Shown one piece after another: positions 24,807 to 64,000 of a DNA stretch of 64,000 nt (positions are counted from its first letter, which is position 1; every line of letters starts with the position of its first letter). This DNA is from Bryobacterales bacterium. GTDB lineage: Bacteria; Acidobacteriota; Terriglobia; Bryobacterales; UBA6623. The notes beneath the pieces were generated by a model. That model saw nothing but the letters and a program-made list of their open reading frames with translations, had not been told where the DNA came from and made no database searches. The stretch covers positions 202,736 to 266,735 of the forward strand of contig OZ251486.1 of NCBI GenBank assembly GCA_965242705.1, in the 5' to 3' direction. The position numbers and the translations under genes are program-made.

Positions 24807-24998
24807 GGAAGGCGCGGAGAATAAGGGGGAGAGCGATGAGCCGGCGGACGTTTGCGGATATGGAGTACGAAGGGAAGAAAAAACAGACGAGGCGGGAGAA
24901 GTTTCTGGGGCGGATGGAGGCGTTGATTCCCTGGCAGCGGCTGGAGGAGCGCATCCGCCCGTATTACCCGCAAGCGGGGCGGGGGCGGCGAACGAACT
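24807..24998 (+). mobile_element. IS5-family insertion sequence remnant (left terminal inverted repeat plus the 5' end of the transposase gene), truncated at the CRISPR boundary
   Basis: GGAAGGCGCGGAGAATAAGGGGGA at 24807 resembles the IS5 terminal inverted repeat as I recall it (GGAAGGTGCGAATAAGCGGGGA). Twenty-nine nt later an ATG opens an IS5/InsH-type (DUF772) transposase N-terminus. Homology stops near 24988, about 10 nt before the first CRISPR repeat. No right end and no DDE domain are present. Confidence 0.75.
24836..24991 (+). pseudogene. truncated IS5-family (DDE_Tnp_1/DUF772) transposase; only about the first 52 codons remain
   Basis: The product MSRRTFADMEYEGKKKQTRREKFLGRMEALIPWQRLEERIRPYYPQAGRGRR matches the conserved N-terminal pattern FADxEYxxKxKxTRREKFLxEMExxxPWxxLxxxIxPxYPKAGxGRP of IS5-group transposases. 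The reading frame then runs straight into CRISPR repeat sequence (…TNCFNGAGVFRPRK). Confidence 0.75.
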
Positions 24999-27900
24999 GC
25001 TTCAATGGGGCCGGGGTCTTTCGACCCCGGAAATACTCGGGAAAAACTCAATGAATTCTTGCTCATCAGCGCTTCAATGGGGCCGGGGTCTTTCGACCCC
25101 GGAAATCAGTACTACAAGGTTACGACGCGCTGGAATCCATGTGCTTCAATGGGGCCGGGGTCTTTCGACCCCGGAAATTCACTGCCCCGCCGGGGCGGCG
25201 CAACCCGCCGCCCCGCTTCAATGGGGCCGGGGTCTTTCGACCCCGGAAATGGGACCAGCTCCTCGCGCATGCAGCGCAAGGGACTGCTTCAATGGGGCCG
25301 GGGTCTTTCGACCCCGGAAATAACGCCGGCCTCGTTCGCCGCGTTATGCACCAACAGGCTTCAATGGGGCCGGGGTCTTTCGACCCCGGAAATAAATAGG
25401 TAAATTCCGAGTTCAACTCGAATTCCACCTGCTTCAATGGGGCCGGGGTCTTTCGACCCCGGAAATCCGCCGCCGGATGCTCGGCCTCAGCTGATCCCAT
25501 ACGCTTCAATGGGGCCGGGGTCTTTCGACCCCGGAAATCATCTGCGGGGGGGGCGATCGCCCCCCCCACCGCAGCTTCAATGGGGCCGGGGTCTTTCGAC
25601 CCCGGAAATGGCAGCCGACTTCGCTAAAAGAACTTCGCCTAGTGGCTTCAATGGGGCCGGGGTCTTTCGACCCCGGAAATCTGCGCGGATTCAAGGCTTT
25701 ACAGATGCCGAGTCCACGCTTCAATGGGGCCGGGGTCTTTCGACCCCGGAAATGGCTGTGCAGGATCCCGTTCCCGAACTGGTTGCTCGTGCTTCAATGG
25801 GGCCGGGGTCTTTCGACCCCGGAAATAAGAAGATACAAACAATACGAACTTGCGACAGGCAAGCTTCAATGGGGCCGGGGTCTTTCGACCCCGGAAATCG
25901 GCCGCGCGCTGATCGCCGACTCGGCGAATACCGGGCTTCAATGGGGCCGGGGTCTTTCGACCCCGGAAATGGGCGGAGAGGTCGCGGATGCTGATTCCGG
26001 CAGAGAGCTTCAATGGGGCCGGGGTCTTTCGACCCCGGAAATATGCGGTCAGCTTCGATGTTTTTCCGGGCGCGGTCTTGCTTCAATGGGGCCGGGGTCT
26101 TTCGACCCCGGAAATACCAGCAAGAAACGCAAATTGCCCGTTCGCAAAACAGCTTCAATGGGGCCGGGGTCTTTCGACCCCGGAAATGGACTGACCCGCC
26201 GGGCGCGAAACTCCTCCTCTCCGGCTTCAATGGGGCCGGGGTCTTTCGACCCCGGAAATGTGGCCGGCGACGCTTGGGGTAAGTACCAAGCGCGGCTTCA
26301 ATGGGGCCGGGGTCTTTCGACCCCGGAAATCCGGCGAGGTCAACGCCGCGCTGAAACGCCTCGCCGAGCTTCAATGGGGCCGGGGTCTTTCGACCCCGGA
26401 AATGCCATCGCGCGCATCCAATCCATCGCCCGGCACGCCGGCTTCAATGGGGCCGGGGTCTTTCGACCCCGGAAATCGGAGATTCCGCGGCCGACCCCGC
26501 GGAATCGAGCCGGGCTTCAATGGGGCCGGGGTCTTTCGACCCCGGAAATGCCGGCGACATGCGCATCGTATCCGATGGCGGCAAGCTTCAATGGGGCCGG
26601 GGTCTTTCGACCCCGGAAATGCCCGCGCCCTGGTCGATCGCGTCATCGCCGCCATTGCTTCAATGGGGCCGGGGTCTTTCGACCCCGGAAATCAGGAGCG
26701 CGTGCGTTTCGCCGCGCTCCAGAATGCCGCTTCAATGGGGCCGGGGTCTTTCGACCCCGGAAATAAGATCGGATCAGCGCCGCCTCGCCCGACGAAATCG
26801 CTTCAATGGGGCCGGGGTCTTTCGACCCCGGAAATCAAGCTCCGCGAAGAGATCGGAAAATGGCCGGGGAGCTTCAATGGGGCCGGGGTCTTTCGACCCC
26901 GGAAATCAGTGAAATCGCTTTTTTTCCGTCCGGCCGCAGCCAGCTTCAATGGGGCCGGGGTCTTTCGACCCCGGAAATATCGCCCAGGGACACCTAGCAA
27001 TAGCGGAATACAACGCTTCAATGGGGCCGGGGTCTTTCGACCCCGGAAATGCGGCGCCCTCATAATCCTCGGCCTCGATGTCGATGCTTCAATGGGGCCG
27101 GGGTCTTTCGACCCCGGAAATCTCGTACTGCCGCACGATGCCATCGAGATCGCCCGGCGCTTCAATGGGGCCGGGGTCTTTCGACCCCGGAAATTCACGG
27201 CTTGCGCGACATGATCCCCGTCGAAGATCAGCTTCAATGGGGCCGGGGTCTTTCGACCCCGGAAATCGCCAGCGAGGCCGAAACGTCGGAAAATTTCAGC
27301 GGGCTTCAATGGGGCCGGGGTCTTTCGACCCCGGAAATGCGAGATCGAGTTTTCGGCGGCGGACGGATCGGCCGAGCTTCAATGGGGCCGGGGTCTTTCG
27401 ACCCCGGAAATTCGCGCAGATGGCCAAGGAAGATTTGCTCGCCGACGCGCTTCAATGGGGCCGGGGTCTTTCGACCCCGGAAATAGCTTGCCTGTGGAAA
27501 TCGTCACTCGAATCGATCGAGCTTCAATGGGGCCGGGGTCTTTCGACCCCGGAAATGTACACATGGCGGCGGCAAGAGACCCGGAACAGACGCTTCAATG
27601 GGGCCGGGGTCTTTCGACCCCGGAAATATCCCCCCCCCCTATACGGGTGATATTGTTCAACCGGCTTCAATGGGGCCGGGGTCTTTCGACCCCGGAAATT
27701 TGACTAAGGACAGTTGGCATATCTTCAAACACAGGCTTCAATGGGGCCGGGGTCTTTCGACCCCGGAAATCTATTGGGTGGTTTTCGATTCCCACCTGAT
27801 GACAATGCTTCAATGGGGCCGGGGTCTTTCGACCCCGGAAATCGAACGCCGTTGTTGATATCCTCATCGATAAGATGGGCTTCAATGGGGCCGGGGTCTT

Positions 27901-28600
27901 TCGACCCCGGAAATCGGCGGAGTCTATTATTGCTCGACGCCGCCCGTAACGGCTTCAATGGGGCCGGGGTCTTTCGACCCCGGAAATCTCAAAGGGAGCG
28001 GGGTAAAGGTTTTACCTATCGCGCTTCAATGGGGCCGGGGTCTTTCGACCCCGGAAATCTTCTCCTAACTGTCCATTTAGCGACGACCTGGAAGAGGCTT
28101 CAATGGGGCCGGGGTCTTTCGACCCCGGAAATCGGAGTCTGTGAGCTCAACGCCGCCCGTAACGTAAGGCTTCAATGGGGCCGGGGTCTTTCGACCCCGG
28201 AAATGAGTTTTAGGAAGATAACTATTTCCATCACCACCACGCTTCAATGGGGCCGGGGTCTTTCGACCCCGGAAATACGTGCACACGGCCGCCCGTGCAG
28301 GTTCGCGAACGCGCTTCAATGGGGCCGGGGTCTTTCGACCCCGGAAATTTGCCTAACAGCCTATTCGAGGCGACTTGGCAATAGGGCTTCAATGGGGCCG
28401 GGGTCTTTCGACCCCGGAAATCCCGCCTTATATCCGGCCCATAGGGGCTTTGTCAACGCTTCAATGGGGCCGGGGTCTTTCGACCCCGGAAATAAAACAA
28501 TGAACGACAAAATGATCGACGCCGTAATGCTTCAATGGGGCCGGGGTCTTTCGACCCCGGAAATGAGGCGACTCGGCAATAGGAAGGAAACTATTATGAC

Positions 28601-29934
28601 ACTTCAATGGGGCCGGGGTCTTTCGACCCCGGAAATTCCTTGCCCCACCACCCGGCCTTCTCGAATTTTTCCTCACTTCAATGGGGCCGGGGTCTTTCGA
28701 CCCCGGAAATATCTACGACCAGGCGCGGGCCAACGTCGTCGTCGTACTTCAATGGGGCCGGGGTCTTTCGACCCCGGAAATACGCCGTCCGTATCGACCT
28801 GGCCGGCGCCGGCGAGGTACTTCAATGGGGCCGGGGTCTTTCGACCCCGGAAATGGGCTGCGGCTGGGTCATGTGGCCTTTCTGGGGGCGACTTCAATGG
28901 GGCCGGGGTCTTTCGACCCCGGAAATATTCGATCTCACCCCGAAGAATTTTCCCGATGTGTCACTTCAATGGGGCCGGGGTCTTTCGACCCCGGAAATCA
29001 TTTTTTCCCGCAACTGCTTGATGCAGTCCGGAATACTTCAATGGGGCCGGGGTCTTTCGACCCCGGAAATGTTTTCCACTGGTGCTTGTTGATGGTGCAC
29101 CCTCCAAACTTCAATGGGGCCGGGGTCTTTCGACCCCGGAAATTTCCGCCGCCAAGGGGGATTTCGCGCGGCGGAGCCGCACTTCAATGGGGCCGGGGTC
29201 TTTCGACCCCGGAAATGCCCTGGGTCGGATTTTCGAAAAATCGATGGATCAGACTTCAATGGGGCCGGGGTCTTTCGACCCCGGAAATAAAGTTTATCAG
29301 AATCATCCGTAGATAATTCTGATACTTCAATGGGGCCGGGGTCTTTCGACCCCGGAAATCTCTCTTTCCCGCTAAGCGCGATTCCCCGGCGTCTCACTTC
29401 AATGGGGCCGGGGTCTTTCGACCCCGGAAATGCCCAATGGCCAAGATGAGCGGAAACACCTTCGCCACTTCAATGGGGCCGGGGTCTTTCGACCCCGGAA
29501 ATTACCGACTGTATTTGTGTCGCCTTCATAAGATATTGACTTCAATGGGGCCGGGGTCTTTCGACCCCGGAAATAACCCACGTTGTCGGAATCGACAAGA
29601 AGGGTAACAGAACTTCAATGGGGCCGGGGTCTTTCGACCCCGGAAATCCCGGAATGAATCTTGTGCTTAGGTATAAGATTATTACTTCAATGGGGCCGGG
29701 GTCTTTCGACCCCGGAAATAGGTTATGGCGCGGGCGAAGCCCGCCTTGATAGCCGACTTCAATGGGGCCGGGGTCTTTCGACCCCGGAAATAAGAAGGAA
29801 GGAACAAACAATGATTGAACGCGAAATACTTCAATGGGGCCGGGGTCTTTCGACCCCGGAAATGGGCGGGCGAAGCCCGCCTCGATAACCGCAACAAAAC
29901 TTCAATGGGGCCGGGGTCTTTCGACCCCGGAAAT
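28601..29934 (-). repeat. block of 19 consecutive variant CRISPR repeats (plus-strand position 1 G->A, giving ACTTCAATGG...)
   Basis: The repeats starting at 28601, 28675, 28746, 28819, 28891, 28963, 29035, 29108, 29181, 29253, 29324, 29396, 29467, 29539, 29612, 29684, 29756, 29828 and 29899 all begin with A. The flanking repeats at 28529 and 29970 begin with G, as did every other repeat I read. Confidence 0.9.
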
Positions 29935-30224
29935 ATGCTCCGCCTCATCCGCGCCGATGCGGTGAGCAAGCTTCAATGGGGCCGGGGTCTTTCGACCCCG
30001 GAAATAGCGCCCGCCACAGGGCGGCCACGGTTGGCGCATTCGCTTCAATGGGGCCGGGGTCTTTCGACCCCGGAAATGACGGCGCTGACTGTCCGGGCGT
30101 TGGAGACGGAAGCGGGCTTCAATGGGGCCGGGGTCTTTCGACCCCGGAAATTCCGATGCATACGCTCACCCTCGATTCCGGCCACCCGGCTTCAATGGGG
30201 CCGGGGTCTTTCGACCCCGGAAAT

Positions 30225-30332
30225 CAATCCCAGCCCGACTTCGACGACGAAGACATCTTCGCTTCAATGGGGCCGGGGTCTTTCGACCCCGGAAATCAAT
30301 CCCAGCCCGACTTCGACGACGAAGACATCTTC
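30225..30332 (-). repeat. tandem duplication of one spacer-repeat unit inside the array
   Basis: The spacer CAATCCCAGCCCGACTTCGACGACGAAGACATCTTC occurs at 30225-30260 and again, identically, at 30297-30332, in adjacent units. Confidence 0.95.
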
Positions 30333-33300
30333 GCTTCAATGGGGCCGGGGTCTTTCGACCCCGGAAATGGGGGGCGGTGAGGTGAAGGTGTTGATAGCGT
30401 CAGGCTTCAATGGGGCCGGGGTCTTTCGACCCCGGAAATGCGCCGGGGGTCGATTGTGATAATTGCGGTTGCCGTGCTTCAATGGGGCCGGGGTCTTTCG
30501 ACCCCGGAAATGACTGGATTGCCATGCAGCAGCAAAAGCAAGCCGCCGGCTTCAATGGGGCCGGGGTCTTTCGACCCCGGAAATGCCTGACGCCATGCCC
30601 CATCCGAAGCAATACATCGTCGCTTCAATGGGGCCGGGGTCTTTCGACCCCGGAAATCTGCATTGCGCCATTCCGTGGAGTCCAAGCCGTGGCGGGCTTC
30701 AATGGGGCCGGGGTCTTTCGACCCCGGAAATCGGGGGCGGTCGTTCGGGCGGCCGCTCGGCGGTCGCGCTTCAATGGGGCCGGGGTCTTTCGACCCCGGA
30801 AATCCAAGCAGCCCGATGGGCCGCCAGCGAAAACCAAAAGGCTTCAATGGGGCCGGGGTCTTTCGACCCCGGAAATGCCTTCGAGCGGCGCGAATCGCAA
30901 GGCGCAATCACCGCTTCAATGGGGCCGGGGTCTTTCGACCCCGGAAATGAAGAAATGGAAACTGATCTTCCAAACCCAAAACTGCTTCAATGGGGCCGGG
31001 GTCTTTCGACCCCGGAAATGCGCCGGCAGCCATCCAAGCGGCGCTGAAGCGCCTCGCTTCAATGGGGCCGGGGTCTTTCGACCCCGGAAATCAGGTCGGA
31101 CGGCTCAACTCCGTCTTGAATCCCTCGCTTCAATGGGGCCGGGGTCTTTCGACCCCGGAAATCAGCGGCTCCCCAAGCACCAGAGACGCCGGATCGTAAG
31201 CTTCAATGGGGCCGGGGTCTTTCGACCCCGGAAATCGGCTTGGGGGTCGGCGTAATCGGAGACGGCTTCGTCGCTTCAATGGGGCCGGGGTCTTTCGACC
31301 CCGGAAATGCGTGTCCCATCCCAAGCAAACGAGTACCGGGTCGATGCTTCAATGGGGCCGGGGTCTTTCGACCCCGGAAATGGCGCCAACTGCGACCGGC
31401 CGCCCCATGACGCCGGTTGCTTCAATGGGGCCGGGGTCTTTCGACCCCGGAAATGCGTTCAACCGCATTTGATTTTGGCTGATGAGCCTTCGGCTTCAAT
31501 GGGGCCGGGGTCTTTCGACCCCGGAAATCGGGGGGTGTCGCATGATCCGCCGCGGGACCGTAATCGCTTCAATGGGGCCGGGGTCTTTCGACCCCGGAAA
31601 TATAGCCCAAGCGGTCTATCGCGGCTACGCGGTCATCGCTTCAATGGGGCCGGGGTCTTTCGACCCCGGAAATGGGCTTTGGCGATCGCGAGGCGGCGGA
31701 GGCCTGGGGCGCTTCAATGGGGCCGGGGTCTTTCGACCCCGGAAATGGGAAAGAAAAATGACGAATCGCGGCGAAGCGGTGGCTTCAATGGGGCCGGGGT
31801 CTTTCGACCCCGGAAATGCCGAGATGTTCCGTTTTCAGGAGTTAGGCAGCCGCGCTTCAATGGGGCCGGGGTCTTTCGACCCCGGAAATCCGCTGGTCGG
31901 GCTGTGGGCCGACAGCAACCGCTTCGCTTCAATGGGGCCGGGGTCTTTCGACCCCGGAAATATCCGGCGCTTGCGGCCCGGCGCCGCTGCCGGGCGGGCT
32001 TCAATGGGGCCGGGGTCTTTCGACCCCGGAAATCACCAGCGGCGCTTGCAGCGCGGAAACGCTCGACTGGCTTCAATGGGGCCGGGGTCTTTCGACCCCG
32101 GAAATGCCTGGAGATAAGCAATGAGACGTACGTATACGTCGTGCTTCAATGGGGCCGGGGTCTTTCGACCCCGGAAATTTGGTCTTGGTGTCGGTCTTGG
32201 CGGCGGCCGCATACGGCTTCAATGGGGCCGGGGTCTTTCGACCCCGGAAATGCGATGCGGGCGAGCAGCGCCGCTTTCTCCGTTTGGCTTCAATGGGGCC
32301 GGGGTCTTTCGACCCCGGAAATCTGCCCAGTCGCCTTTGGTATGCCGAAGGCAGATACGCTTCAATGGGGCCGGGGTCTTTCGACCCCGGAAATGTGCAG
32401 GGCGCAGAGAAACCCGGCGGTGGCAAGATAGCTTCAATGGGGCCGGGGTCTTTCGACCCCGGAAATGTTCAGCGCCGCATCATCGCGGCGCGAACAACCG
32501 GCCCGGCTTCAATGGGGCCGGGGTCTTTCGACCCCGGAAATGCGCCGTATCGGAAACGGAAAAGATGCCAAATCCGATAGCTTCAATGGGGCCGGGGTCT
32601 TTCGACCCCGGAAATCAGTCGAGCGTTTCCGCGCTGCAAGCGCCGGCGGTGCTTCAATGGGGCCGGGGTCTTTCGACCCCGGAAATACGCGCATTGGCGG
32701 AACGAGTTCGTGTAGGTACGAGCTTCAATGGGGCCGGGGTCTTTCGACCCCGGAAATCAGAAAATGATCGGGCAGCTAAACCAGCTTCGGCAGGCTTCAA
32801 TGGGGCCGGGGTCTTTCGACCCCGGAAATGCGCTCATAGACAGTAAGCTGCACGCGCCCGTCATCGCTTCAATGGGGCCGGGGTCTTTCGACCCCGGAAA
32901 TCGCCGCCTGCTGCGCGTTGCCGCGCCGCTTCGCGGTGCTTCAATGGGGCCGGGGTCTTTCGACCCCGGAAATTCCAACTGCAGGCGCGATTTGACTTGC
33001 GGCGCGATGCTTCAATGGGGCCGGGGTCTTTCGACCCCGGAAATGCCTTCCCCCTTGCCCTCCGCGCCGTCGGAGGCCAAGCTTCAATGGGGCCGGGGTC
33101 TTTCGACCCCGGAAATCGCCATTGCCGGCGTTACGGCTGCGATGCTTGCGGGTGCTTCAATGGGGCCGGGGTCTTTCGACCCCGGAAATGGCGGCGAAGC
33201 AGGCCGAGATCGAAGCGCTGGAAGGCGCTTCAATGGGGCCGGGGTCTTTCGACCCCGGAAATGCCGAATCCGCGCGTTGCCAACTCCCGCATATACTCCG

Positions 33301-39300: not shown

Positions 39301-40559
39301 TGGGGCCGGGGTCTTTCGACCCCGGAAATCATGGAGCCGCTGAAATGCTTCCGGGCCGTCACCAAGCTTCAATGGGGCCGGGGTCTTTCGACCCCGGAAA
39401 TCGCCGAATGCCTGATCGAGGCGCCCGACGACAAAGCGGCTTCAATGGGGCCGGGGTCTTTCGACCCCGGAAATAGCATCCGCGCCTTTGGCTGGCAACA
39501 GCCGCTCGTAGGCTTCAATGGGGCCGGGGTCTTTCGACCCCGGAAATACCTTGACGCACGGCTGTGGCAAGCGCCGCCGACCGTCGCTTCAATGGGGCCG
39601 GGGTCTTTCGACCCCGGAAATATGGCGGTCGCTGTCGAGTTTGTCTTCAATGGCGCGGCTTCAATGGGGCCGGGGTCTTTCGACCCCGGAAATGCGCTGG
39701 CCAGCATCGAGGCCGACCAAGCCGCCGCCGCTTCAATGGGGCCGGGGTCTTTCGACCCCGGAAATATTGGAGTCCCTGGAACAACTCTCCGCCCAAGCAT
39801 GGCTTCAATGGGGCCGGGGTCTTTCGACCCCGGAAATTCACCTTAACCCGCAGATGGTCAGGCCGGATACAGTGCTTCAATGGGGCCGGGGTCTTTCGAC
39901 CCCGGAAATGCGCGCAATGCGCCAGCATTCGAGAGCGGTACGAAGCTTCAATGGGGCCGGGGTCTTTCGACCCCGGAAATGACGGCGACGCGGCGGAGTT
40001 GGCCGCCTTGGCCGTCGCTTCAATGGGGCCGGGGTCTTTCGACCCCGGAAATAGGCACCTCATGGCCGAAATCACCCGGCTACAAGAGGCTTCAATGGGG
40101 CCGGGGTCTTTCGACCCCGGAAATCTGGCAAAGCGGCAACGCAAGCCAGAATGCGAGGCAGCTTCAATGGGGCCGGGGTCTTTCGACCCCGGAAATACAT
40201 TGCCAATGCGAATCTCATTGGCCAGAATCATTTGCTTCAATGGGGCCGGGGTCTTTCGACCCCGGAAATGTAGGCCTGTTTGACCCGCAGATGGTCGACT
40301 TCGGCGCTTCAATGGGGCCGGGGTCTTTCGACCCCGGAAATGTCGTGCTGCACCGAGTTTCCGAAACCGAAGCCGAAAGGCTTCAATGGGGCCGGGGTCT
40401 TTCGACCCCGGAAATCGGCTACGACCATCGCGCCTACGTCCATCCCGCCACGCTTCAATGGGGCCGGGGTCTTTCGACCCCGGAAATATCGCCGGAATCA
40501 TCTACGCCGCCATCTACACGGGCGCTTCAATGGGGCCGGGGTCTTTCGACCCCGGAAAT

Positions 40560-40989
40560 GCTGATGGCGATTGCGATGCCGTCCGCCGCTGCAGCGCTTC
40601 AATGGGGCCGGGGTCTTTCGACCCCGGAAATGCGCCTGCCGCTGTCGCAACGGCTGCCGGTTCCGCCGCTTCAATGGGGCCGGGGTCTTTCGACCCCGGA
40701 AATATGATCTCGATGCTGTTGCTGATCTCCGCCAGCGAGCTTCAATGGGGCCGGGGTCTTTCGACCCCGGAAATGCTGATGGCGATTGCGATGCCGTCCG
40801 CCGCTGCAGCGCTTCAATGGGGCCGGGGTCTTTCGACCCCGGAAATGCGCCTGCCGCTGTCGCAACGGCTGCCGGTTCCGCCGCTTCAATGGGGCCGGGG
40901 TCTTTCGACCCCGGAAATATGATCTCGATGCTGTTGCTGATCTCCGCCAGCGAGCTTCAATGGGGCCGGGGTCTTTCGACCCCGGAAAT
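40560..40989 (-). repeat. tandem duplication of a three-unit (215-bp) spacer-repeat block inside the array
   Basis: The spacers GCTGATGGCGATTGCGATGCCGTCCGCCGCTGCAGC, GCGCCTGCCGCTGTCGCAACGGCTGCCGGTTCCGCC and ATGATCTCGATGCTGTTGCTGATCTCCGCCAGCGA (40560-40774 with their repeats) recur in the same order at 40775-40989. Confidence 0.95.
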
Positions 40990-49900: not shown

Positions 49901-52900
49901 TCCACAGTGGCCGCTTCAATGGGGCCGGGGTCTTTCGACCCCGGAAATCTGCTTCTCGATCTTCACCGGCTCCGAGGCGAGAGCGCTTCAATGGGGCCGG
50001 GGTCTTTCGACCCCGGAAATTCCTCGATGTGGTCTTGCTGCTCGGAGCGACCGCCGCTTCAATGGGGCCGGGGTCTTTCGACCCCGGAAATCAGAAGCAA
50101 ACGTCACGCCCGTTAGCAGTGCGCCGCGCTTCAATGGGGCCGGGGTCTTTCGACCCCGGAAATGCGCATCAACGAAACCGCCACGGCCGTCGACCGCGAC
50201 GCTTCAATGGGGCCGGGGTCTTTCGACCCCGGAAATTCTCCAGTGAGGGTCAGCTTGATCCGATCAAGCTGCTGCTTCAATGGGGCCGGGGTCTTTCGAC
50301 CCCGGAAATATCAGTATCGACGCCAATGACCTGGAGCGCCTGCGCGCTTCAATGGGGCCGGGGTCTTTCGACCCCGGAAATCTATGAGCTTCGCAGTTCG
50401 ACGCCCGATGCCGATGGGCTTCAATGGGGCCGGGGTCTTTCGACCCCGGAAATGGGCAACGAATCCGCCTGTGCGGGCAAGCGTCAACGGCTTCAATGGG
50501 GCCGGGGTCTTTCGACCCCGGAAATGGAATCCGTAAGCTCTGCGCCGCCCAGCGCCACATGGCTTCAATGGGGCCGGGGTCTTTCGACCCCGGAAATGCG
50601 CCGGGCGCGGTTCTGCTGAACGGCGCGCATGCGGCTTCAATGGGGCCGGGGTCTTTCGACCCCGGAAATCGGTAGTGCCGTCAAGCTCCATTTCGATGAC
50701 CAAGCTGCTTCAATGGGGCCGGGGTCTTTCGACCCCGGAAATCCGGCTGCGCCCGAACCGCCAACCCAGCCCAATCAGGCTTCAATGGGGCCGGGGTCTT
50801 TCGACCCCGGAAATTTCCAAGCCGCCAAAGAATGGGCCTTCGCCAACGACGCTTCAATGGGGCCGGGGTCTTTCGACCCCGGAAATGAATCGGTATTCGA
50901 ATGCTTCGGCGTCCGGCTCCAGCTTCAATGGGGCCGGGGTCTTTCGACCCCGGAAATATCCTCGTCGCCGGCCGCACGAAGCGAACCCTCTCCGCTTCAA
51001 TGGGGCCGGGGTCTTTCGACCCCGGAAATGCCGACCTCCTCGAACACGGCGTTCTGCGTATCCCAGCTTCAATGGGGCCGGGGTCTTTCGACCCCGGAAA
51101 TAGGATCGCTTGCCGCGCAACGAGGCCGGGCAAATCGACTAGCTTCAATGGGGCCGGGGTCTTTCGACCCCGGAAATTTCGGCCTCGCCGAATACGCGCT
51201 GGTTGATATCACGGCTTCAATGGGGCCGGGGTCTTTCGACCCCGGAAATCTCGCTGACAGTCGTCGGCAAGGGCAACCGCCAGCGGCTTCAATGGGGCCG
51301 GGGTCTTTCGACCCCGGAAATGAGCGCCGCGCGCGCCTGCCTGCGCATCGACGAAGCGCTTCAATGGGGCCGGGGTCTTTCGACCCCGGAAATGCCGGGT
51401 TCCGACTTCGCTCTCGCCTCGGAGCCGGTGCTTCAATGGGGCCGGGGTCTTTCGACCCCGGAAATAGCCACTCGCAAATGCCTCCGAAACCCGAAGAGCG
51501 GCTTCAATGGGGCCGGGGTCTTTCGACCCCGGAAATCTGATATCATGCAAGACACCAACGCCCGCCGCCTGGCTTCAATGGGGCCGGGGTCTTTCGACCC
51601 CGGAAATTCGGCTAACGGTGTTAGTAGCGTGACGGTATTACCACGCTTCAATGGGGCCGGGGTCTTTCGACCCCGGAAATCCGGTTCCAACCACAACCCT
51701 ATGGGGAACAGAGATAGTGCTTCAATGGGGCCGGGGTCTTTCGACCCCGGAAATCGACCTGCTCGCCGCCTTGATAGCGAGCGAAAACCCGCTTCAATGG
51801 GGCCGGGGTCTTTCGACCCCGGAAATTGGCCGCCGAAACGGCCGAGATCAAGCATCTACTCGCTTCAATGGGGCCGGGGTCTTTCGACCCCGGAAATGCC
51901 GAAAGAGACGCCCTCGAGGCCGAAGCCGAGGCGGCTTCAATGGGGCCGGGGTCTTTCGACCCCGGAAATATGCGCAACGCATACGGGCCGCGCGCCACTA
52001 CGACCCCGCTTCAATGGGGCCGGGGTCTTTCGACCCCGGAAATAGTGATGGGCTTTGCCGGGCGCATTACGGCGCCGGCGCTTCAATGGGGCCGGGGTCT
52101 TTCGACCCCGGAAATTGGTTGTTGAAGTGGAATTCCGCGAGACGGCTTTCGAGCTTCAATGGGGCCGGGGTCTTTCGACCCCGGAAATAGCCGAATTCCG
52201 AAAAAAAGTGCGAATTCGCAAAAAGCTTCAATGGGGCCGGGGTCTTTCGACCCCGGAAATACGCCGGGGCGGACGCCAGCTACCGCATCGTCCCCACGCT
52301 TCAATGGGGCCGGGGTCTTTCGACCCCGGAAATACCGGAACCCCCAGCGACCGCGCAGGCGCTCCAGCGGGCTTCAATGGGGCCGGGGTCTTTCGACCCC
52401 GGAAATATCGAGTCATCCGCTTCGACGGCATAACGCCGCTGACGCTTCAATGGGGCCGGGGTCTTTCGACCCCGGAAATCCGGACTCACGATGCAAGACC
52501 GCCGCCGCATTTTGGGCTTCAATGGGGCCGGGGTCTTTCGACCCCGGAAATTCGCCGCCGTCCTTGTATCCTTGCCCGCGAAAACTGCTTCAATGGGGCC
52601 GGGGTCTTTCGACCCCGGAAATACGGCCAAGATCACGCTCTACAAGAGCGAATGGGCCGCTTCAATGGGGCCGGGGTCTTTCGACCCCGGAAATACGGGC
52701 AACCCCGCGCCCGCACTGGCCGCCCGCTTGGGCTTCAATGGGGCCGGGGTCTTTCGACCCCGGAAATTAGTGACATCCATTGCTCTTCGAGGCGGAAGAG
52801 ACAGCTTCAATGGGGCCGGGGTCTTTCGACCCCGGAAATAGCCAGCGGTCATGTCCATCGCGGGTCTGGTGGTAGTAGCTTCAATGGGGCCGGGGTCTTT

Positions 52901-55900: not shown

Positions 55901-58900
55901 GAAAACCTCCTCATGCTTCAATGGGGCCGGGGTCTTTCGACCCCGGAAATCATCATGGGGCGGCGCAACCCGCCGCCCCGCACCTCGCTTCAATGGGGCC
56001 GGGGTCTTTCGACCCCGGAAATATTACTCCGCCGGAGCCGGCCATGCCGTCATCATAGCTTCAATGGGGCCGGGGTCTTTCGACCCCGGAAATCTCGTCT
56101 CGCCGCGCAGCACGCCGCAAAGCCTCAGCTAGCTTCAATGGGGCCGGGGTCTTTCGACCCCGGAAATAGGACGAGCAATGAGCGGAGCCGATTGGTGCAT
56201 AGCGCTTCAATGGGGCCGGGGTCTTTCGACCCCGGAAATCCCCCATCCGGCGCCACCAGCGGGCGCCGTTCTTGGCGCTTCAATGGGGCCGGGGTCTTTC
56301 GACCCCGGAAATGTTGTACCGCGAAAGCGAAAGCCGCCCTCCGGTAACCGCTTCAATGGGGCCGGGGTCTTTCGACCCCGGAAATAAGACCTGCTCGTCG
56401 AAATCGACTACGGAGAGACGCGCTTCAATGGGGCCGGGGTCTTTCGACCCCGGAAATCTCAGGCCGCGCCTGTCGAGTGCCAATCGCGCGGTTGGCTTCA
56501 ATGGGGCCGGGGTCTTTCGACCCCGGAAATCCATGCTGACCGACGCCGTGTACAGGATATGCAAAGCGCTTCAATGGGGCCGGGGTCTTTCGACCCCGGA
56601 AATGCGAAGGCCTCGAAATCCTCTACCGCGAATCCTGGGGCTTCAATGGGGCCGGGGTCTTTCGACCCCGGAAATGCGCAGCCGTCGTCAATCACGGCTT
56701 TTTCAAAGACCGAGGCTTCAATGGGGCCGGGGTCTTTCGACCCCGGAAATTGGCTTGTGCGGCGCGTTCGGCGGAGGCTCGTTCATGGTCGCTTCAATGG
56801 GGCCGGGGTCTTTCGACCCCGGAAATGCCGTCGCCGTTGTCGAGGCTTTGCAAGCGCCAGTGCTTCAATGGGGCCGGGGTCTTTCGACCCCGGAAATGCG
56901 GCAAGCGCGAACGGCGTGGATGCCGCCTTCGTCGCTTCAATGGGGCCGGGGTCTTTCGACCCCGGAAATCAGCAGGATTGCTCGCCGCCATCGTCAGCGG
57001 CCAATGGCTTCAATGGGGCCGGGGTCTTTCGACCCCGGAAATATGCGCAAAGCTATCGAGAACGCCATGCGCGCCCTCGCTTCAATGGGGCCGGGGTCTT
57101 TCGACCCCGGAAATCCGGCTGCATCGAGCAGACCGTCCACTGGCGGCACGGCTTCAATGGGGCCGGGGTCTTTCGACCCCGGAAATTCCTTTCGGCCTCC
57201 GCGCATCGGGCCACGCTGCACCGCTTCAATGGGGCCGGGGTCTTTCGACCCCGGAAATTCGAAGAAGAACCCCAACCCCGCAATCCAGATCAAGGCTTCA
57301 ATGGGGCCGGGGTCTTTCGACCCCGGAAATCGGCCTGCTTGGAGCGCGGCGGCGCGATGTTTTCGGCGCTTCAATGGGGCCGGGGTCTTTCGACCCCGGA
57401 AATCGGCTTGGATTCGCTGCTGATTTCGGTGGCGATCAGCGCTTCAATGGGGCCGGGGTCTTTCGACCCCGGAAATACCGCACTGATGATGCTGGCCGAT
57501 GCCGTGCGCAAAGCTTCAATGGGGCCGGGGTCTTTCGACCCCGGAAATCCACCGAAGGAGACCATGACCATGCCCGAACACCCCGCTTCAATGGGGCCGG
57601 GGTCTTTCGACCCCGGAAATCTACTGGGCTACGATTGGCGCATCGTGCCCGGCGGCGCTTCAATGGGGCCGGGGTCTTTCGACCCCGGAAATTCGTTCAG
57701 CGCCGATGCTGCTTCCGCCCATGCCGCAGCTTCAATGGGGCCGGGGTCTTTCGACCCCGGAAATGGGCAATCCAATCGCTCAGCATGGCGCGCCCGAACA
57801 GCTTCAATGGGGCCGGGGTCTTTCGACCCCGGAAATGTCTGCGAATTCCGGGACATCTCCTACAGCATCCCCGCTTCAATGGGGCCGGGGTCTTTCGACC
57901 CCGGAAATGGAGGTGCAGACGAGCACCTTGTCGAAGCCGACGGCGCTTCAATGGGGCCGGGGTCTTTCGACCCCGGAAATCACCTTCGAGCCGTGCGCCC
58001 TGCCCATGCTCGCCTCGCTTCAATGGGGCCGGGGTCTTTCGACCCCGGAAATTCTTCTTCGGGGGAGTCGGGTTTCTCCAGGCCGACTTGCTTCAATGGG
58101 GCCGGGGTCTTTCGACCCCGGAAATTGCCTCCGACGATGAGGCATACGGCTCCGTCACGCTTGCTTCAATGGGGCCGGGGTCTTTCGACCCCGGAAATGG
58201 GTTCTTATCGCTTCGGCGTGGCGGCGCGGGACGTTGCTTCAATGGGGCCGGGGTCTTTCGACCCCGGAAATCGGCCATATCACCGCCTGCCATGCGGCCG
58301 CCTGCCTCGCTTCAATGGGGCCGGGGTCTTTCGACCCCGGAAATGTGGGCGCGCCAGGTCATTTTGCGGGTTGCCGCCCACATGCTTCAATGGGGCCGGG
58401 GTCTTTCGACCCCGGAAATAATGCGCAAATGGGATGGGCAGTCCGCATGCGGGTAGCTTCAATGGGGCCGGGGTCTTTCGACCCCGGAAATCCTATCGAG
58501 TGCCAATCGCGCAACTGCAAGCATCCGCCGCTTCAATGGGGCCGGGGTCTTTCGACCCCGGAAATGCGCCGCCCGTGACGCCCTCGCCGCTTATGAGGCG
58601 CCGCTTCAATGGGGCCGGGGTCTTTCGACCCCGGAAATGTTGACATCGACGACGGCGACGACAACCCCATCGACCTCGCTTCAATGGGGCCGGGGTCTTT
58701 CGACCCCGGAAATATCGCTGGCGGTCAGACCGCTTGGCCATCACTGCGCGGCTTCAATGGGGCCGGGGTCTTTCGACCCCGGAAATCGGTCACTGAAACC
58801 AGCGCAAGACTCGATACTGGATTGCTTCAATGGGGCCGGGGTCTTTCGACCCCGGAAATGCCACCGCCGGTTACCAGCCGAACGACTGGCCGACCGCTTC

Positions 58901-61900
58901 AATGGGGCCGGGGTCTTTCGACCCCGGAAATACCGGGCGGGCGGCCTATGCGGCTGCGCCGCTTGCGGCTTCAATGGGGCCGGGGTCTTTCGACCCCGGA
59001 AATTTCGCGGTAGAGGATTTCGAGGCCTTCGCGGATGTAGCTTCAATGGGGCCGGGGTCTTTCGACCCCGGAAATGTCACAGCGTCGGGTTTTGGCGTCG
59101 AGTTCGGGGCAGCTTCAATGGGGCCGGGGTCTTTCGACCCCGGAAATGGGGCGTCTCCGGCAGTGGGTCGGTGGCGGCGTCGAGCTTCAATGGGGCCGGG
59201 GTCTTTCGACCCCGGAAATGCTCTGGTTGAGGTTGCGAAACGGCGGGCGGAAACCGCTTCAATGGGGCCGGGGTCTTTCGACCCCGGAAATAGATGATTT
59301 TGGATTGCCGCAGGCTTGAAGCCACGAGCTTCAATGGGGCCGGGGTCTTTCGACCCCGGAAATTTGTGCGGCGCGTTCGGCGGAGGCTCGTTCATGGTCG
59401 CTTCAATGGGGCCGGGGTCTTTCGACCCCGGAAATCGGTTCCAACCACAACCATATGGGGAACCGAGATAGTGCTTCAATGGGGCCGGGGTCTTTCGACC
59501 CCGGAAATCTCGTGTGGGATGAGACGGAAAACTACCGCATCGAGCTTCAATGGGGCCGGGGTCTTTCGACCCCGGAAATGGCAACTACGTCTTCACGATC
59601 ACCTTCGTCAACTCGCTTCAATGGGGCCGGGGTCTTTCGACCCCGGAAATAAGACCTGCTCGTCGAAATCGACTACGGAGAGACGCGCTTCAATGGGGCC
59701 GGGGTCTTTCGACCCCGGAAATAATCGTCGGCCATCGCACCATCGACGGAGTGCCGCTGCTTCAATGGGGCCGGGGTCTTTCGACCCCGGAAATGCCCTA
59801 CGTCGACCCCTACGCCCCGCCGGTTATCGAGCTTCAATGGGGCCGGGGTCTTTCGACCCCGGAAATTGGCAATAACCCCCCCCCGCGCCGGAAGCCGCAG
59901 CCGCTTCAATGGGGCCGGGGTCTTTCGACCCCGGAAATGCCGCCTCAACCGCATCGATCAACGCTCTACCGTTGGCTTCAATGGGGCCGGGGTCTTTCGA
60001 CCCCGGAAATCACGGTCTCGCCGCGCCCCATCACCATCGAGACGCCGCTTCAATGGGGCCGGGGTCTTTCGACCCCGGAAATCGGCACGGAGGCTGTCGA
60101 GTTCGCTCTCGACGCGGCGCTTCAATGGGGCCGGGGTCTTTCGACCCCGGAAATACATGCCAGGAGACGATCTCGACGCAGCCGCCCGCGCTTCAATGGG
60201 GCCGGGGTCTTTCGACCCCGGAAATCTTCTACCGCAGAGAGGAGCGGACGTAATGGCTACCGGCTTCAATGGGGCCGGGGTCTTTCGACCCCGGAAATGG
60301 ATTCGACGGCTGCCAGCAGCCGAGCAACCCCGCGGCTTCAATGGGGCCGGGGTCTTTCGACCCCGGAAATCGCCGCCAGTGTTTTTTCCAGTCGAGGCAC
60401 CGCCGGGCTTCAATGGGGCCGGGGTCTTTCGACCCCGGAAATGCCTTGATCGAGATCGACGCTTCCGAAGCCGTCACCGTCGCTTCAATGGGGCCGGGGT
60501 CTTTCGACCCCGGAAATATATGGCAAAGTGCCGATGTGGAAAAGCAACCGAAAGCTTCAATGGGGCCGGGGTCTTTCGACCCCGGAAATAACTTCACGAA
60601 CGAGCAGTGGAAAGCGCTGACTCTGGGCTTCAATGGGGCCGGGGTCTTTCGACCCCGGAAATGTTTCCTTTTTGCAATGCTCGGCAAAGGCTTTGCGGCT
60701 TCAATGGGGCCGGGGTCTTTCGACCCCGGAAATGTTGAAACCGCGGGTTCAGTCGCAAAACGGGACAAGCTGCTTCAATGGGGCCGGGGTCTTTCGACCC
60801 CGGAAATGGCTGCGGCGACGTTCTCCACCGAGACGCTGAAGCCGGCTTCAATGGGGCCGGGGTCTTTCGACCCCGGAAATCAGCCCGGCGCAGGCGCATT
60901 GGCTGGCGGCGTTATCGCTTCAATGGGGCCGGGGTCTTTCGACCCCGGAAATACGAGAGCGAATGGGCCGAGGTCTTCGCCCTGGCGGCTTCAATGGGGC
61001 CGGGGTCTTTCGACCCCGGAAATCCGATGCCTGAACCTCATGAAAACCCTGCGCCGGCGGCTTCAATGGGGCCGGGGTCTTTCGACCCCGGAAATATGCT
61101 GACGCCGACGAATCCGCTCGCATCGCCATGCGGCTTCAATGGGGCCGGGGTCTTTCGACCCCGGAAATCCCAGATCGTCGAAATCAAGCATGGCTACACG
61201 CCGGCGCTTCAATGGGGCCGGGGTCTTTCGACCCCGGAAATACATCGCCGAGCGGGGACAGCGGCAACCCATCGTGGGCTTCAATGGGGCCGGGGTCTTT
61301 CGACCCCGGAAATGAGGCTTTGCGGCGTGCTGCGCGGCGGGATGAGAGCGCTTCAATGGGGCCGGGGTCTTTCGACCCCGGAAATATGGGATAGCCTCCT
61401 GCATCGTTCAATTCTCCGAACGCTTCAATGGGGCCGGGGTCTTTCGACCCCGGAAATGGGACGGCTCCGCGGGATTCAGCATCGGCGCAGCGGTGCTTCA
61501 ATGGGGCCGGGGTCTTTCGACCCCGGAAATCCGCGATTATCCGGACGCCGATCAAATCGCCAAATGGCGCGCTTCAATGGGGCCGGGGTCTTTCGACCCC
61601 GGAAATCAAGGCGACGGGGTGCTCGTCCGGCAGCACGACGGGCTTCAATGGGGCCGGGGTCTTTCGACCCCGGAAATAAGCCGCTGGTTGACTGGGCGGA
61701 AGCGTTGGAACAGGCTTCAATGGGGCCGGGGTCTTTCGACCCCGGAAATGAGCGGCTTGGGAACGGATACGGGAACGCTCGAACCCGGCTTCAATGGGGC
61801 CGGGGTCTTTCGACCCCGGAAATTTGCCCGGCAGGCCGCACGGGGCGCCTTGGATAGCAGCTTCAATGGGGCCGGGGTCTTTCGACCCCGGAAATGGCCG

Positions 61901-64000
61901 CCAAGAAAGACGACCTGCTGCAGCGCTTGCACGGCTTCAATGGGGCCGGGGTCTTTCGACCCCGGAAATCGCCCGGCGCGGATCGCCGCGAACGACCGCG
62001 AAGCGGGCTTCAATGGGGCCGGGGTCTTTCGACCCCGGAAATCCGCCCGGCGCGGATCGCCGCGAACGACCGCGAAGCGGCTTCAATGGGGCCGGGGTCT
62101 TTCGACCCCGGAAATCCCAGCGAACCCGCCCAGACGCCCAGACCGCCGGCGCTTCAATGGGGCCGGGGTCTTTCGACCCCGGAAATCGTGCCGCCAAAGA
62201 TAAATAGACTAGCCGCCAAGCAGCTTCAATGGGGCCGGGGTCTTTCGACCCCGGAAATATCGTAGCCGCGCTGTCGAGCCGTGCCGCCAAAGATGCTTCA
62301 ATGGGGCCGGGGTCTTTCGACCCCGGAAATCCGTTGGTCTGCCAGGGCGGGGCAGCGAGGAGGATGCTGCTTCAATGGGGCCGGGGTCTTTCGACCCCGG
62401 AAATGCCTTGAAGCCGAACCGCAATCTGCGCATCAGCGGCGCTTCAATGGGGCCGGGGTCTTTCGACCCCGGAAATGCGACTGAACCCAATGAAACCCCT
62501 TGCAGTTTTGCCCGCTTCAATGGGGCCGGGGTCTTTCGACCCCGGAAATCCGCGAAGAGCCGCCTCGCCAAGCGGCTGCGAACCGCTTCAATGGGGCCGG
62601 GGTCTTTCGACCCCGGAAATTCGTTGCCGTGCGTTGGCGATGGCGGAATGCTTCCGGGCTTCAATGGGGCCGGGGTCTTTCGACCCCGGAAATATGGGCC
62701 GCTCGACCCGCCCCGCCGAAGCCCAAGCCGCTTCAATGGGGCCGGGGTCTTTCGACCCCGGAAATGAGCGGTGGGATGCCGATCTGCGCACGATTGTTGC
62801 CGGGCTTCAATGGGGCCGGGGTCTTTCGACCCCGGAAATAGCCGCCCAGACCGCGCGGGAACTCGTCGAAGAGCAGCTTCAATGGGGCCGGGGTCTTTCG
62901 ACCCCGGAAATGCGGCGGCTGCAAGGCGGCGGAACAAGTAGCCGGGGTTGCTTCAATGGGGCCGGGGTCTTTCGACCCCGGAAATCCCCTGGCCAAGTCC
63001 GACTTTCGCCGGGAGGCCGCGCTTCAATGGGGCCGGGGTCTTTCGACCCCGGAAATGCTGCGGTTTTTCGCACCATTGCCTGGGCTTCTTCGCGCTTCAA
63101 TGGGGCCGGGGTCTTTCGACCCCGGAAATTAGCTTGCGCCTCTATGAGGCTAACGATGGCATCCGTGCTTCAATGGGGCCGGGGTCTTTCGACCCCGGAA
63201 ATCACCTTGTCTTGCATTGCCATCGCGAAGTCCCGCCGGCTTCAATGGGGCCGGGGTCTTTCGACCCCGGAAATATCGCCGTCTCTGAACGCATCCGAGG
63301 CTTGGATGCTGCTTCAATGGGGCCGGGGTCTTTCGACCCCGGAAATGCCGTTGCGCACGGCACGCGATACACCGGAGCGGTCGGCTTCAATGGGGCCGGG
63401 GTCTTTCGACCCCGGAAATATCCACGGACTGAGCGAACGAGCCGACGTAGTCCTCGCTTCAATGGGGCCGGGGTCTTTCGACCCCGGAAATGACGCTGCG
63501 ACCGCAAGAGCATATCGAGGCCACGTTGCTTCAATGGGGCCGGGGTCTTTCGACCCCGGAAATGCCCGGCGCGGCTAACCCGCGCTAAGTCGGGCCGGAG
63601 CTTCAATGGGGCCGGGGTCTTTCGACCCCGGAAATCGGCTCCGAAGGCGCTGTTGCCGATTCTGGTGAACGTGCTTCAATGGGGCCGGGGTCTTTCGACC
63701 CCGGAAATGCGGGAGCCGACATCGCACGATGCCGGATGCAGCCTGCTTCAATGGGGCCGGGGTCTTTCGACCCCGGAAATCATCTTCCGCCCGCCTCAAA
63801 CGAACAGAAGGAGTCGGCTTCAATGGGGCCGGGGTCTTTCGACCCCGGAAATCTCCCAATTGGTGACCGAAGCCAGCTATGACGTACTGCTTCAATGGGG
63901 CCGGGGTCTTTCGACCCCGGAAATGCGTTGCCCGGCGCAACAGGCCGAAGATGGATGCCGCTTCAATGGGGCCGGGGTCTTTCGACCCCGGAAATTGGAT

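Follow-up and report, generated by a model that had tools for sequence, protein, structure and literature searches.

Very probably, the region is the trailer-proximal stretch, at least 39 kb long, of a single, very large CRISPR array of type I-G in an Acidobacteriota chromosome. We analysed a stretch of 64,000 nucleotides, called the window below, in which the array occupies the high-coordinate side and is still running at the edge. The array is genuine, of near-record size and of an already known kind, and ordinary CRISPR working is predicted for it.

24999..64000, minus strand: CRISPR array of 540 repeats and 539 complete spacers (core search, Rfam CRISPR-DR16, order in relatives)

The repeats were almost uniform. 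We searched the window for a 35-nt core, CTTCAATGGGGCCGGGGTCTTTCGACCCCGGAAAT, tolerating up to 6 substitutions, and found 540 copies, all exact and on the plus strand, between 25000 and 63995, and none elsewhere in the window or on the other strand. The repeat-to-repeat distance was 70-76 nt with a mode of 72, and Tandem Repeats Finder independently reported a 72-nt period at 30189-63995. The repeat is 36 nt long, with repeat 1 starting at 24999, and the positions that flank it on both sides are unconserved. G precedes the core in 521 of the 540 copies, and A in the other 19. Every one of the 540 repeats is intact: 521 are identical, the A variants lie in a single block, and the 19.4 kb of repeat sequence contain no private mutation.

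28601..29934, minus strand: 19 variant repeats in a row, nos. 51-69, with A for G at plus-strand position 1

The transcribed repeat in this block has T as its final base (ATTGAAGT). After the last visible repeat, which ends at 63995, come 5 nt of another spacer, so the array runs past the window edge. An earlier note on this DNA had counted 540 repeats and 539 complete spacers, had described the array as open at 64000 and had reported one SNP class in 19 copies; the core search gave exactly the same counts, and the other two observations held as well.

The segments between the repeats were those of a CRISPR array rather than a satellite. Spacer lengths were 36 nt (268 spacers), 37 (134), 35 (89), 38 (36), 39 (6), 40 (5) and 34 (1), so that 98% of the 539 are 35-38 nt long and the mode of 36 nt (268/539) coincides with the 36-bp centre of type I-G spacers (PMC6547450). 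There were 533 distinct spacers, and only 6 spacer sequences were present twice. Constant short direct repeats thus alternate with non-repetitive spacers of similar length, as in CRISPR arrays generally. A satellite or minisatellite, or a protein-coding repeat, could give the perfectly regular period of ~72 nt across 39 kb and the long ORFs, up to 620 aa, that cross the array. However, there are 533 different sequences between the repeats, one of the CRISPR repeat families of Rfam matches the repeat, near-identical repeats adjoin cas operons elsewhere, and neither of the two ORF products that we checked is recorded as a gene. The earlier note had named a few spacers repeated many times as the sign of a satellite; the diversity of the spacers refutes that reading, to which we give practically no chance. 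The ORFs are spurious, and gene callers will put long ORFs of this sort into arrays of such kind.

The repeat is that of a type I-G (formerly I-U) array read on the minus strand. When transcribed, it has the layout ATTT-CCGGGGTC-GAAA-GACCCCGG-CCCC-ATTGAAGC.

24999..25034, minus strand: trailer-most repeat, transcribed ATTTCCGGGGTCGAAAGACCCCGGCCCCATTGAAGC, with an 8-bp hairpin, a GAAA loop, CCCC and the 8-nt handle ATTGAAGC (fold)

The fold has an energy of -17.4 kcal/mol (z = -3.5). Csb2 cuts the type I-G repeat 4 nt 3' of the hairpin base, leaving an 8-nt handle, and the published architecture (36 nt, hairpin, 4 nt, 8-nt handle) is also that of the window repeat (PMC9638904). The I-G substrate of Thioalkalivibrio sulfidiphilus has an equal hairpin, 4 nt and 8-nt handle, in a 36-nt repeat and a 72-nt unit (PMC9638904), and the I-U array of Geobacter sulfurreducens likewise has a spacer mode of 36 nt and a repeat that ends in AGC (PMC6547450). 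Unlike the arrays of these two species, the window array has at least 540 units, and the two target flanks deduced from it (see below) are not TTN.

The Rfam family CRISPR-DR16 (RF01330) matched on the minus strand only, over the full model, with 34.5 bits (E = 3e-6), which is below the gathering score of 35. All 37 model positions align on that strand, with an equal hairpin and CAUUGAA tail, whereas the window repeat is 36 nt long, differs in loop and stem sequence, and has a handle that ends in GC, not AC. The window repeat is a close relative of CRISPR-DR16 rather than a formal member. The minus-strand reading follows from this match together with the cas4/cas1-leader-array order in relatives, and it makes 24999 the trailer (oldest) end, with the leader and cas genes expected beyond 64000. 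Another measure of orientation, depletion of T-runs on the RNA-sense strand, was unsupported, as the minus strand has more T than A. Depletion of terminators was uninformative because shuffles destroy the repeats. The exact repeat had no match in 185,579 species-representative genomes and none in JGI metagenomes.

In relatives, closely similar arrays adjoin type I-G cas genes. We surveyed species-representative genomes with a degenerate repeat pattern, which gave at least 118 stretches. In almost all of the 33 loci with a usable leader-side flank, an ORF of ~570-600 aa adjoins the array on the leader side. Three loci annotated with NCBIfam (L077, L023 and L100) have Csb2, Cas3g, Cas3-extension and Cas4g/Cas1g (730-770 bits), followed by the array. 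For L121 and L123-L128 we used recorded gene calls and Pfam matches; L121, L123, L124, L125 and L128 are cas-adjacent and have repeats 1-3 mismatches from the window repeat. In these five the order is cas2, cas4/cas1, a gap of 184 bp (183 bp in L128) and the first repeat, and where the contig reaches there are upstream Pfam matches to Cas3-like, GSU0053 and, in L123 and L125, GSU0054. L100, whose repeat has 1 mismatch, likewise has the cas4/cas1-leader-array junction. Across L100 and the five, the leader has 83% mean column identity, and its conserved motif is absent from the 64-kb window. The type I-G signature genes (the Csb2 Cas5-Cas6 fusion, Cas3g and the Cas4/Cas1 fusion) were thus found beside the array in relatives only. 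In L121, 4 repeats have the variant of repeats 51-69, and in L043, L092, L111 and L119 it is the consensus.

We considered whether the closest Cas4/Cas1 clusters could be the cas locus of the window species and rejected this, since their repeats are 1-3 mismatches off and no spacer is in common. There were no spacers common to the window and the arrays L121-L125. The host looks like a Bryobacterales-like member of the Acidobacteriota. The best relatives of the window GroEL are 94% identical, one of them on a contig with a Cas4/Cas1 cluster of a Bryobacterales MAG, and the only organism-named match in the GroEL search was to Acidobacteriia/Terriglobia.

The visible flank is the trailer side of the array. 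The interval 1-24664 encodes a PSCyt/PSD1 protein, glycogen enzymes, HtrA, Lgt, LspA, cytochrome c, GroEL, an alginate-export porin, CysK, Rrf2, and ETF alpha and beta, and no Cas families were found in it. The features nearest to the array are as follows.

23894..24664, minus strand: ETF beta subunit (PF01012), the last housekeeping gene before the array
24807..24991, plus strand: IS5-family remnant, with inverted-repeat-like end GGAAGGCGCGGAGAATAAG and ATG at 24836 (translation)
24992..24998, no strand: 7-nt junction ACGAACT between the IS remnant and repeat 1 (comparison of the window with L001)

The ETF beta gene, whose identical protein occurs on two other assemblies, marks the chromosomal context. 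The earlier note was right that the 25-kb flank holds no cas gene, but this is no anomaly: with the minus-strand reading, the flank in view lies on the trailer side, and every close relative has its leader and cas genes at the opposite end. At a minus-strand array, having no cas genes nearby merely reflects which end is visible. The IS remnant has just 52 transposase codons and then breaks off at the array. The transposase ORF reads on in L001, which is 99.2% identical in the flank, and its product matches Pfam DUF772, a transposase domain; the two sequences part ways after GGCGGCGA. The ACGAACT junction is probably left over from a spacer that was truncated, and the truncated IS5-family transposase at the trailer looks like a deletion scar.

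The array includes one short duplication and a run of spacers with unusual composition.

40560..40953, minus strand: tandem duplication of 3 repeat-spacer units, S216-S218 = S219-S221 (spacer comparison)
27628..29898, minus strand: low-GC spacer run S37-S68 (GC per spacer; start approximate)

In the low-GC run, the spacer pairs S41/S44, S47/S50 and S66/S68 overlap in part. Mean GC was 0.545 in S50-S68, the 19 spacers with variant repeats, versus 0.629 in the rest (Mann-Whitney p = 0.008), and the newer edge of the low-GC run (S68/S69) is the end of the variant-repeat block. An assembly that chained the arrays of several strains, or two loci, through their identical repeats could produce such a discontinuity, in which repeat variant and spacer GC change together, and also the three-unit duplication. 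The source is probably a metagenome assembly, as all of the relatives appear to be, and the junction of IS and array is in the window only, another assembly continuing into the IS. However, chained strain variants share old spacers and should yield collinear repeated blocks, and there were none besides the three-unit tandem copy and isolated single duplicates. At the scale of long reads the array is not repetitive, since the 36-nt spacer of every 72-nt unit is unique, and unit spacing always stays within 70-76 nt. Independently assembled relatives also have long arrays, those in long-read MAGs running to at least 251 units: one array is bounded at both ends and has 173, another has at least 201, and others of at least 131 are open at the locus edge. 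We therefore regard inflation by assembly as improbable and take the array to be one locus.

Among these relatives, the Bryobacterales MAGs OY282420.1 and CBDCCP010000003.1 and the ENA contigs ERZ21742408 ctg6236c and ERZ25070786 ctg150460c have repeats that differ from the window repeat at 1-3 of 36 positions, with at least 201, 79 + 42, at least 131 and at least 135 units, respectively. CBDCCP010000003.1 and the two ENA contigs have an equal leader and cas2-cas4/cas1 arrangement, and GroEL on the two ENA contigs is 85-86% identical to that of the window. The visible arrays of all four are 2-4 times shorter than the window array.

The length of the array approaches the published record, which is 587 spacers in Haliangium ochraceum (PMC7145573, PMC8047081) and was still given as such in 2023 (PMC10076291); a typical bacterial array has fewer than 50 (PMC8047081). 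The earlier note had given ~590 units for the same species and had placed the array at or near the upper limit. The literature bears out the first, and so do our counts the second: with at least 539 spacers, the array is ~8% short of the record and still running. Like the window array, that of H. ochraceum DSM 14365 exceeds 500 units without a break, and its host too is a high-GC bacterium whose genome is large (PMC7145573, PMC8047081). It is complete and from an isolate genome, whereas the window array is open-ended and probably from a metagenome assembly. We think it somewhat better than an even bet that the whole array, with more than 587 spacers, is the longest on record, in a Bryobacterales-like Acidobacteriota I-G lineage where hundreds of units are normal. 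Dilution of crRNAs and loss of spacers are believed to limit array length. If the array is that long, the lineage would have either unusually low spacer loss or crRNA expression tens of kilobases from the leader. Arrays of such length are rare, and this one of at least 540 units, with relatives of 130 to more than 250, makes a system for asking how far from the leader crRNAs are made and how recombinational collapse is avoided.

Spacer acquisition may be off now, perhaps having recently stopped. Five window proteins were located on one contig of 4,969,973 bp. This source contig encodes an intact Cas2 (96 aa) and P0183, the C-terminal 218 aa of Cas4/Cas1 (99% identical to P0006), which starts at an internal Met and is the only such product that we found on record there; the expected length is 592 aa. 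A search with the N-terminal 374 aa of Cas4/Cas1 gave no source-contig product among the best 120 matches, a weak negative since shorter fragments fall below the cut-off and cluster members other than representatives are not displayed. The orthologue closest to the fragment (L128, 99%) adjoins repeats with a TTAA loop, whereas the window array has GAAA, so the source contig could hold two arrays. By analogy with the relatives, array and cas genes are presumably adjacent on the source contig.

These findings bear on whether the array is a frozen archive, real but with cas4/cas1 truncated and no new spacers, serving as inherited memory or slowly decaying as an orphan. The 218-aa fragment and the N-terminal search are what this would predict, and there was IS activity at the opposite end of the array. 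Against it, Cas2 is intact, the N-terminal result is weak, and a frameshift error in the assembly would yield the same Cas4/Cas1 gene call; interference genes on the source contig were neither found nor excluded. All repeats are intact and free of private mutations, which means that any loss of function was recent. We consider a frozen archive possible but doubtful. The earlier note had described the array as young or actively homogenised. The homogeneity does speak against long decay. A new repeat is a copy of the leader-proximal repeat, so active homogenisation is unnecessary and we rejected it; youth and activity are not established, given the Cas4/Cas1 fragment and the truncated IS at the trailer end.

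Based on the relatives and on I-G biochemistry, we propose that the array works as follows. A leader of ~184 bp beyond 64000 would drive transcription of the minus strand, and the Cas6-like domain of Csb2 would cut 4 nt after each hairpin to give crRNAs of ~72 nt with the 5' handle AUUGAAGC. These would guide a Cas8g/Cas7/Csb2 Cascade, with Cas3, against invading DNA. The array would have grown unit by unit at the leader end through Cas4/Cas1-Cas2, and the copying of the first repeat at every insertion would explain why the repeats are identical. The old end was probably clipped later by a deletion that took most of the adjacent IS5 element; the junction itself is visible in the window.

No target of the spacers was found in the collections searched. 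At megablast sensitivity, the array matched no protospacer in GenBank phages or PLSDB plasmids, five exact scans of IMG/VR gave none, and no spacer targeted the 25-kb flank. One spacer, S373, had a single 20-nt match to an IS21 istB gene. The several hundred sequential spacers are a possible record of a virus community missing from current databases. A bias to C at -3 was considered as a general property of the adaptation machinery and rejected, as it was weak or absent in the nearest relatives; pooling of relatives for this bias is confounded by differences in repeat boundaries. Two flanks deduced from overlapping spacers were TCC and CGC, versus the published PAM, TTN 5' of the protospacer (n = 2). 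The pairs S440/S476 and S370/S477 have their minus-strand 5' ends in common and unlike 3' ends, as predicted if the PAM defines the 5' end.

The array that begins at position 24999 is a real CRISPR array of type I-G, viewed from the trailer end; it is known in kind and exceptional in size. We searched the window for the 35-nt repeat core, allowing up to six substitutions, and found 540 copies, all exact and on one strand, and none outside the array. The next base is conserved (G in 521 copies, A in 19) and its neighbours are not, indicating that the repeat is 36 nt long; the 19 variant copies follow one another without interruption (repeats 51-69). Repeats are spaced 70-76 nt apart, and the 539 spacers (S1-S539, numbered upward from 24999; 533 distinct) are 34-40 nt long with a mode of 36, giving a modal unit of 72 nt (36 + 36). 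Another spacer begins after repeat 540, whose last base is 63995, so the array continues beyond the window. Every figure that the earlier note had given for the array was reproduced. The local duplications are:

40560-40953, three-unit tandem copy, S216-218 identical to S219-221
30225-30332, adjacent identical spacers S73 and S74
61970-62079, adjacent pair S512/S513, the same sequence offset by 1 nt

In two further pairs, the duplicate spacers lie far apart in the array. Long spurious open reading frames run through the array on both strands (25005-63940), the longest of 620 aa (56559-58421, plus strand), and gene callers have placed such frames within the arrays of the related loci L121, L124, L125 and L127.

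The direction in which the array is read was deduced from the repeat, from the order of cas genes, leader and array in relatives, and from re-sampled spacers. The Rfam family CRISPR-DR16 aligned over its full length to each repeat on the minus strand only, scoring 34.5 bits, where the family's gathering score is 35. Read on the minus strand, the repeat is ATTT-CCGGGGTC-GAAA-GACCCCGG-CCCC-ATTGAAGC, and it folds into an 8-bp hairpin (-17.4 kcal/mol). This architecture is that shown biochemically for type I-G, in which the Cas6-like domain of Csb2 cleaves the 36-nt repeat 4 nt 3' of the hairpin base, so that the crRNAs are 72 nt long and start with an 8-nt 5' handle (PMC9638904). The spacer mode of 36 bp and the repeat ending AGC are likewise those of the Geobacter I-U/I-G system (PMC6547450). 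In each of the pairs S440/S476 and S370/S477, the two spacers were taken from the same protospacer; in both pairs the minus-strand 5' end is common and the length differs at the 3' end, which is the pattern predicted for a PAM-defined end lying 5' on the minus strand. Based on these results and on the relatives described below, we conclude that the array is read from right to left and that 24999 is its trailer end.

A visible side free of cas genes is the normal situation for an array read in this direction, and its leader and cas genes should lie past 64000. The earlier note had described the 25-kb low-coordinate flank as free of cas genes, and this was borne out: all the large open reading frames with coding-like GC3 in 1-24664 are ordinary chromosomal genes, and none matched a Cas family. 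They encode:

PSCyt/PSD1 protein
glycogen phosphorylase, glycogen synthase, debranching and branching enzymes, and MalQ
HtrA, Lgt and LspA
cytochrome c, GroEL and an alginate-export porin
CysK and Rrf2; electron transfer flavoprotein (ETF) alpha and beta

The old end of the array looks as though it was clipped by a deletion. Directly left of repeat 1 are 7 nt (ACGAACT), preceded by:

24807-24991, 5' end of an IS5-family element, with an inverted-repeat-like end and the first 52 transposase codons

An independent metagenome scaffold of the same species (L001) is 99.2% identical across 6.1 kb of the flank and has the same element, and there the transposase frame reads on, its product matching the DUF772 transposase domain. 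Because the element is broken off in the window and its frame continues in L001, we attribute the junction to a deletion in the window genome, with one end within the insertion sequence and the other apparently within a spacer. The old end may originally have extended further. The natural trailer ends of relatives also carry perfect terminal repeats, so an intact last repeat is by itself uninformative.

Relatives of the array lie next to type I-G cas genes. The exact repeat had no match in 185,579 species-representative genomes or in JGI metagenomes, and a degenerate pattern that kept the stem and handle was found in at least 118 stretches of the species-representative genomes. Among the matches listed, the closest repeats (one mismatch) were in two metagenome-assembled genomes (MAGs) titled Bryobacterales, and many carriers of the repeat family may be sponge or coral symbionts, as their record titles suggest. 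In almost all of 33 loci with a usable leader-side flank, an open reading frame of about 570-600 aa adjoins the array, upstream relative to the orientation ending in ATTGAAGC. NCBIfam models identified the order Csb2, Cas3g, Cas3-extension, Cas4g/Cas1g fusion and then the array in three loci, the fusion scoring 730-770 bits (cut-off 560 bits). We used the Cas4/Cas1 of one of these two Bryobacterales-titled MAGs (locus L100) as a query and obtained five more cas-adjacent loci, with repeats one to three mismatches from that of the window. Their order is cas2, cas4/cas1, a leader of 184 bp (183 bp in L128) and the array, with Pfam matches to Cas3-like, GSU0053 and sometimes GSU0054 proteins upstream. 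The six leaders have 83% column identity and carry a TACAAT box and, just before repeat 1, the motif TCTTTGAAAACAAAATAGTAAC, which is absent from the window.

The source genome has type I-G adaptation genes. Five window proteins all mapped to a single contig of 4,969,973 bp. This contig encodes an intact Cas2 (96 aa, identical to those of the cas-adjacent loci L125 and L128) and a 218-aa protein, P0183, that corresponds to the C-terminal 218 residues of a 592-aa Cas4/Cas1 (99% identity to P0006). As recorded, cas4/cas1 looks truncated or split: no N-terminal product from this contig was among the best 120 matches, a weak negative. The 90% clusters of Csb1, Csb2 and Cas3 from one relative had no member from the contig, which at that clustering level says little either way about these genes. 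The apparent truncation raises the possibility that spacer acquisition has stopped; the repeats, 19.4 kb in all, carry no private mutation whatever, which speaks for a recent date of any such loss. L128 encodes a full-length, 99% identical orthologue of the Cas4/Cas1, and the adjoining repeats have a TTAA loop, not GAAA, so there may be a second array on the source contig, or the repeat sequence may switch closer to the leader.

The best relatives of the window's GroEL were 94% identical. The contig of one of them also has the Cas4/Cas1 cluster that occurs in OY282420.1, a MAG titled Bryobacterales, and the sole organism-named match in this search was to Acidobacteriia/Terriglobia. These matches make a member of the Acidobacteriota, within the Bryobacterales lineage, the most likely host. 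The source contig has a second GroEL paralogue (P0225, 87% identical).

The end of the block of variant repeats coincides with a change in spacer composition. Spacers S37-S68 (27628 onward) form a low-GC run; the 19 that accompany variant repeats (S50-S68) have a mean GC of 0.545 versus 0.629 in all others (p = 0.008). Three spacer pairs within the run overlap in part, consistent with a rapid series of acquisitions from a single lower-GC element. The variant block ends at 29934, exactly at the newer boundary of the run (S68/S69). The last transcribed base of the variant repeats is T, not C. If growth is polarised, every later unit would inherit a mutation of the first repeat, and a return to the standard base therefore needs back-mutation or recombination. 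Simple growth at the leader end does not account for the switch at S68/S69. The same terminal-base variant recurs in relatives.

The non-PAM end of the spacers also has a composition bias. At position -3 of the minus-strand 3' end, C was present in 267 of the 539 spacers (50%; background 0.30; 0.144 bits) and was favoured in every length class. The bias was weaker in L125 and L121 and absent from the related arrays L033 and L021, and it suggests a sequence preference where this end is cut. S98 (32034-32069) and S106 (32616-32650) derive from nearly the same protospacer in opposite orientations, and several other regions are each represented by two to four spacers from either strand (S395/S440/S476; S172/S217/S220/S307).

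No spacer matched the window flank beyond chance, a megablast search of the array against GenBank phages and PLSDB plasmids gave no match, and five exact scans of IMG/VR with the most re-sampled spacers found none. S373 (51898-51933) has an exact 20 nt in common with an IS21-type istB gene (L100:698-717) that sits between two arrays of a Bryobacterales MAG; this identity is the only hint of a target class.

The size of the array is at or near the known limit, as the earlier note had claimed. The record that it named, about 590 units in Haliangium ochraceum, is given in the literature consulted as 587 spacers (PMC7145573; PMC8047081) and was still cited in 2023 (PMC10076291); the window holds at least 540 units, and 49 more (~3.5 kb) would take the array past it. 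Maxima in sponge-microbiome studies are 158-169 spacers (PMC5099237; PMC11410982). We consider it improbable that assembly inflated the length: strain variants chained together would show up as repeated collinear spacer blocks, of which there are none, each unit is unique at long-read scale, the spacing is strictly regular, and independently assembled relatives have very long arrays too. Bounded arrays among the fetched relatives had 173, 120 and 80 units, open-ended ones at least 251, at least 201 and at least 177, and those of four cas-adjacent loci were still going after 131-135. Two of these open-ended arrays, of the same repeat family as that of the window, run past the fetched tiles:

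OZ243958.1 (L093+L022+L089), at least 251 units
OY282420.1 (L033+L021), at least 201 units

Very long I-G arrays appear common in long-read MAGs. Compared with these relatives, the window array stands at the extreme of a lineage in which arrays tend to be long. The array of L125 (ENA ERZ23496165, PANK22-1_SAMN12291153 scaffold_130, 54 kb) starts at about contig position 25264 and had run through 134 repeats without ending where the fetched stretch stops; should it extend to the end of the scaffold, it would comprise about 400 units.
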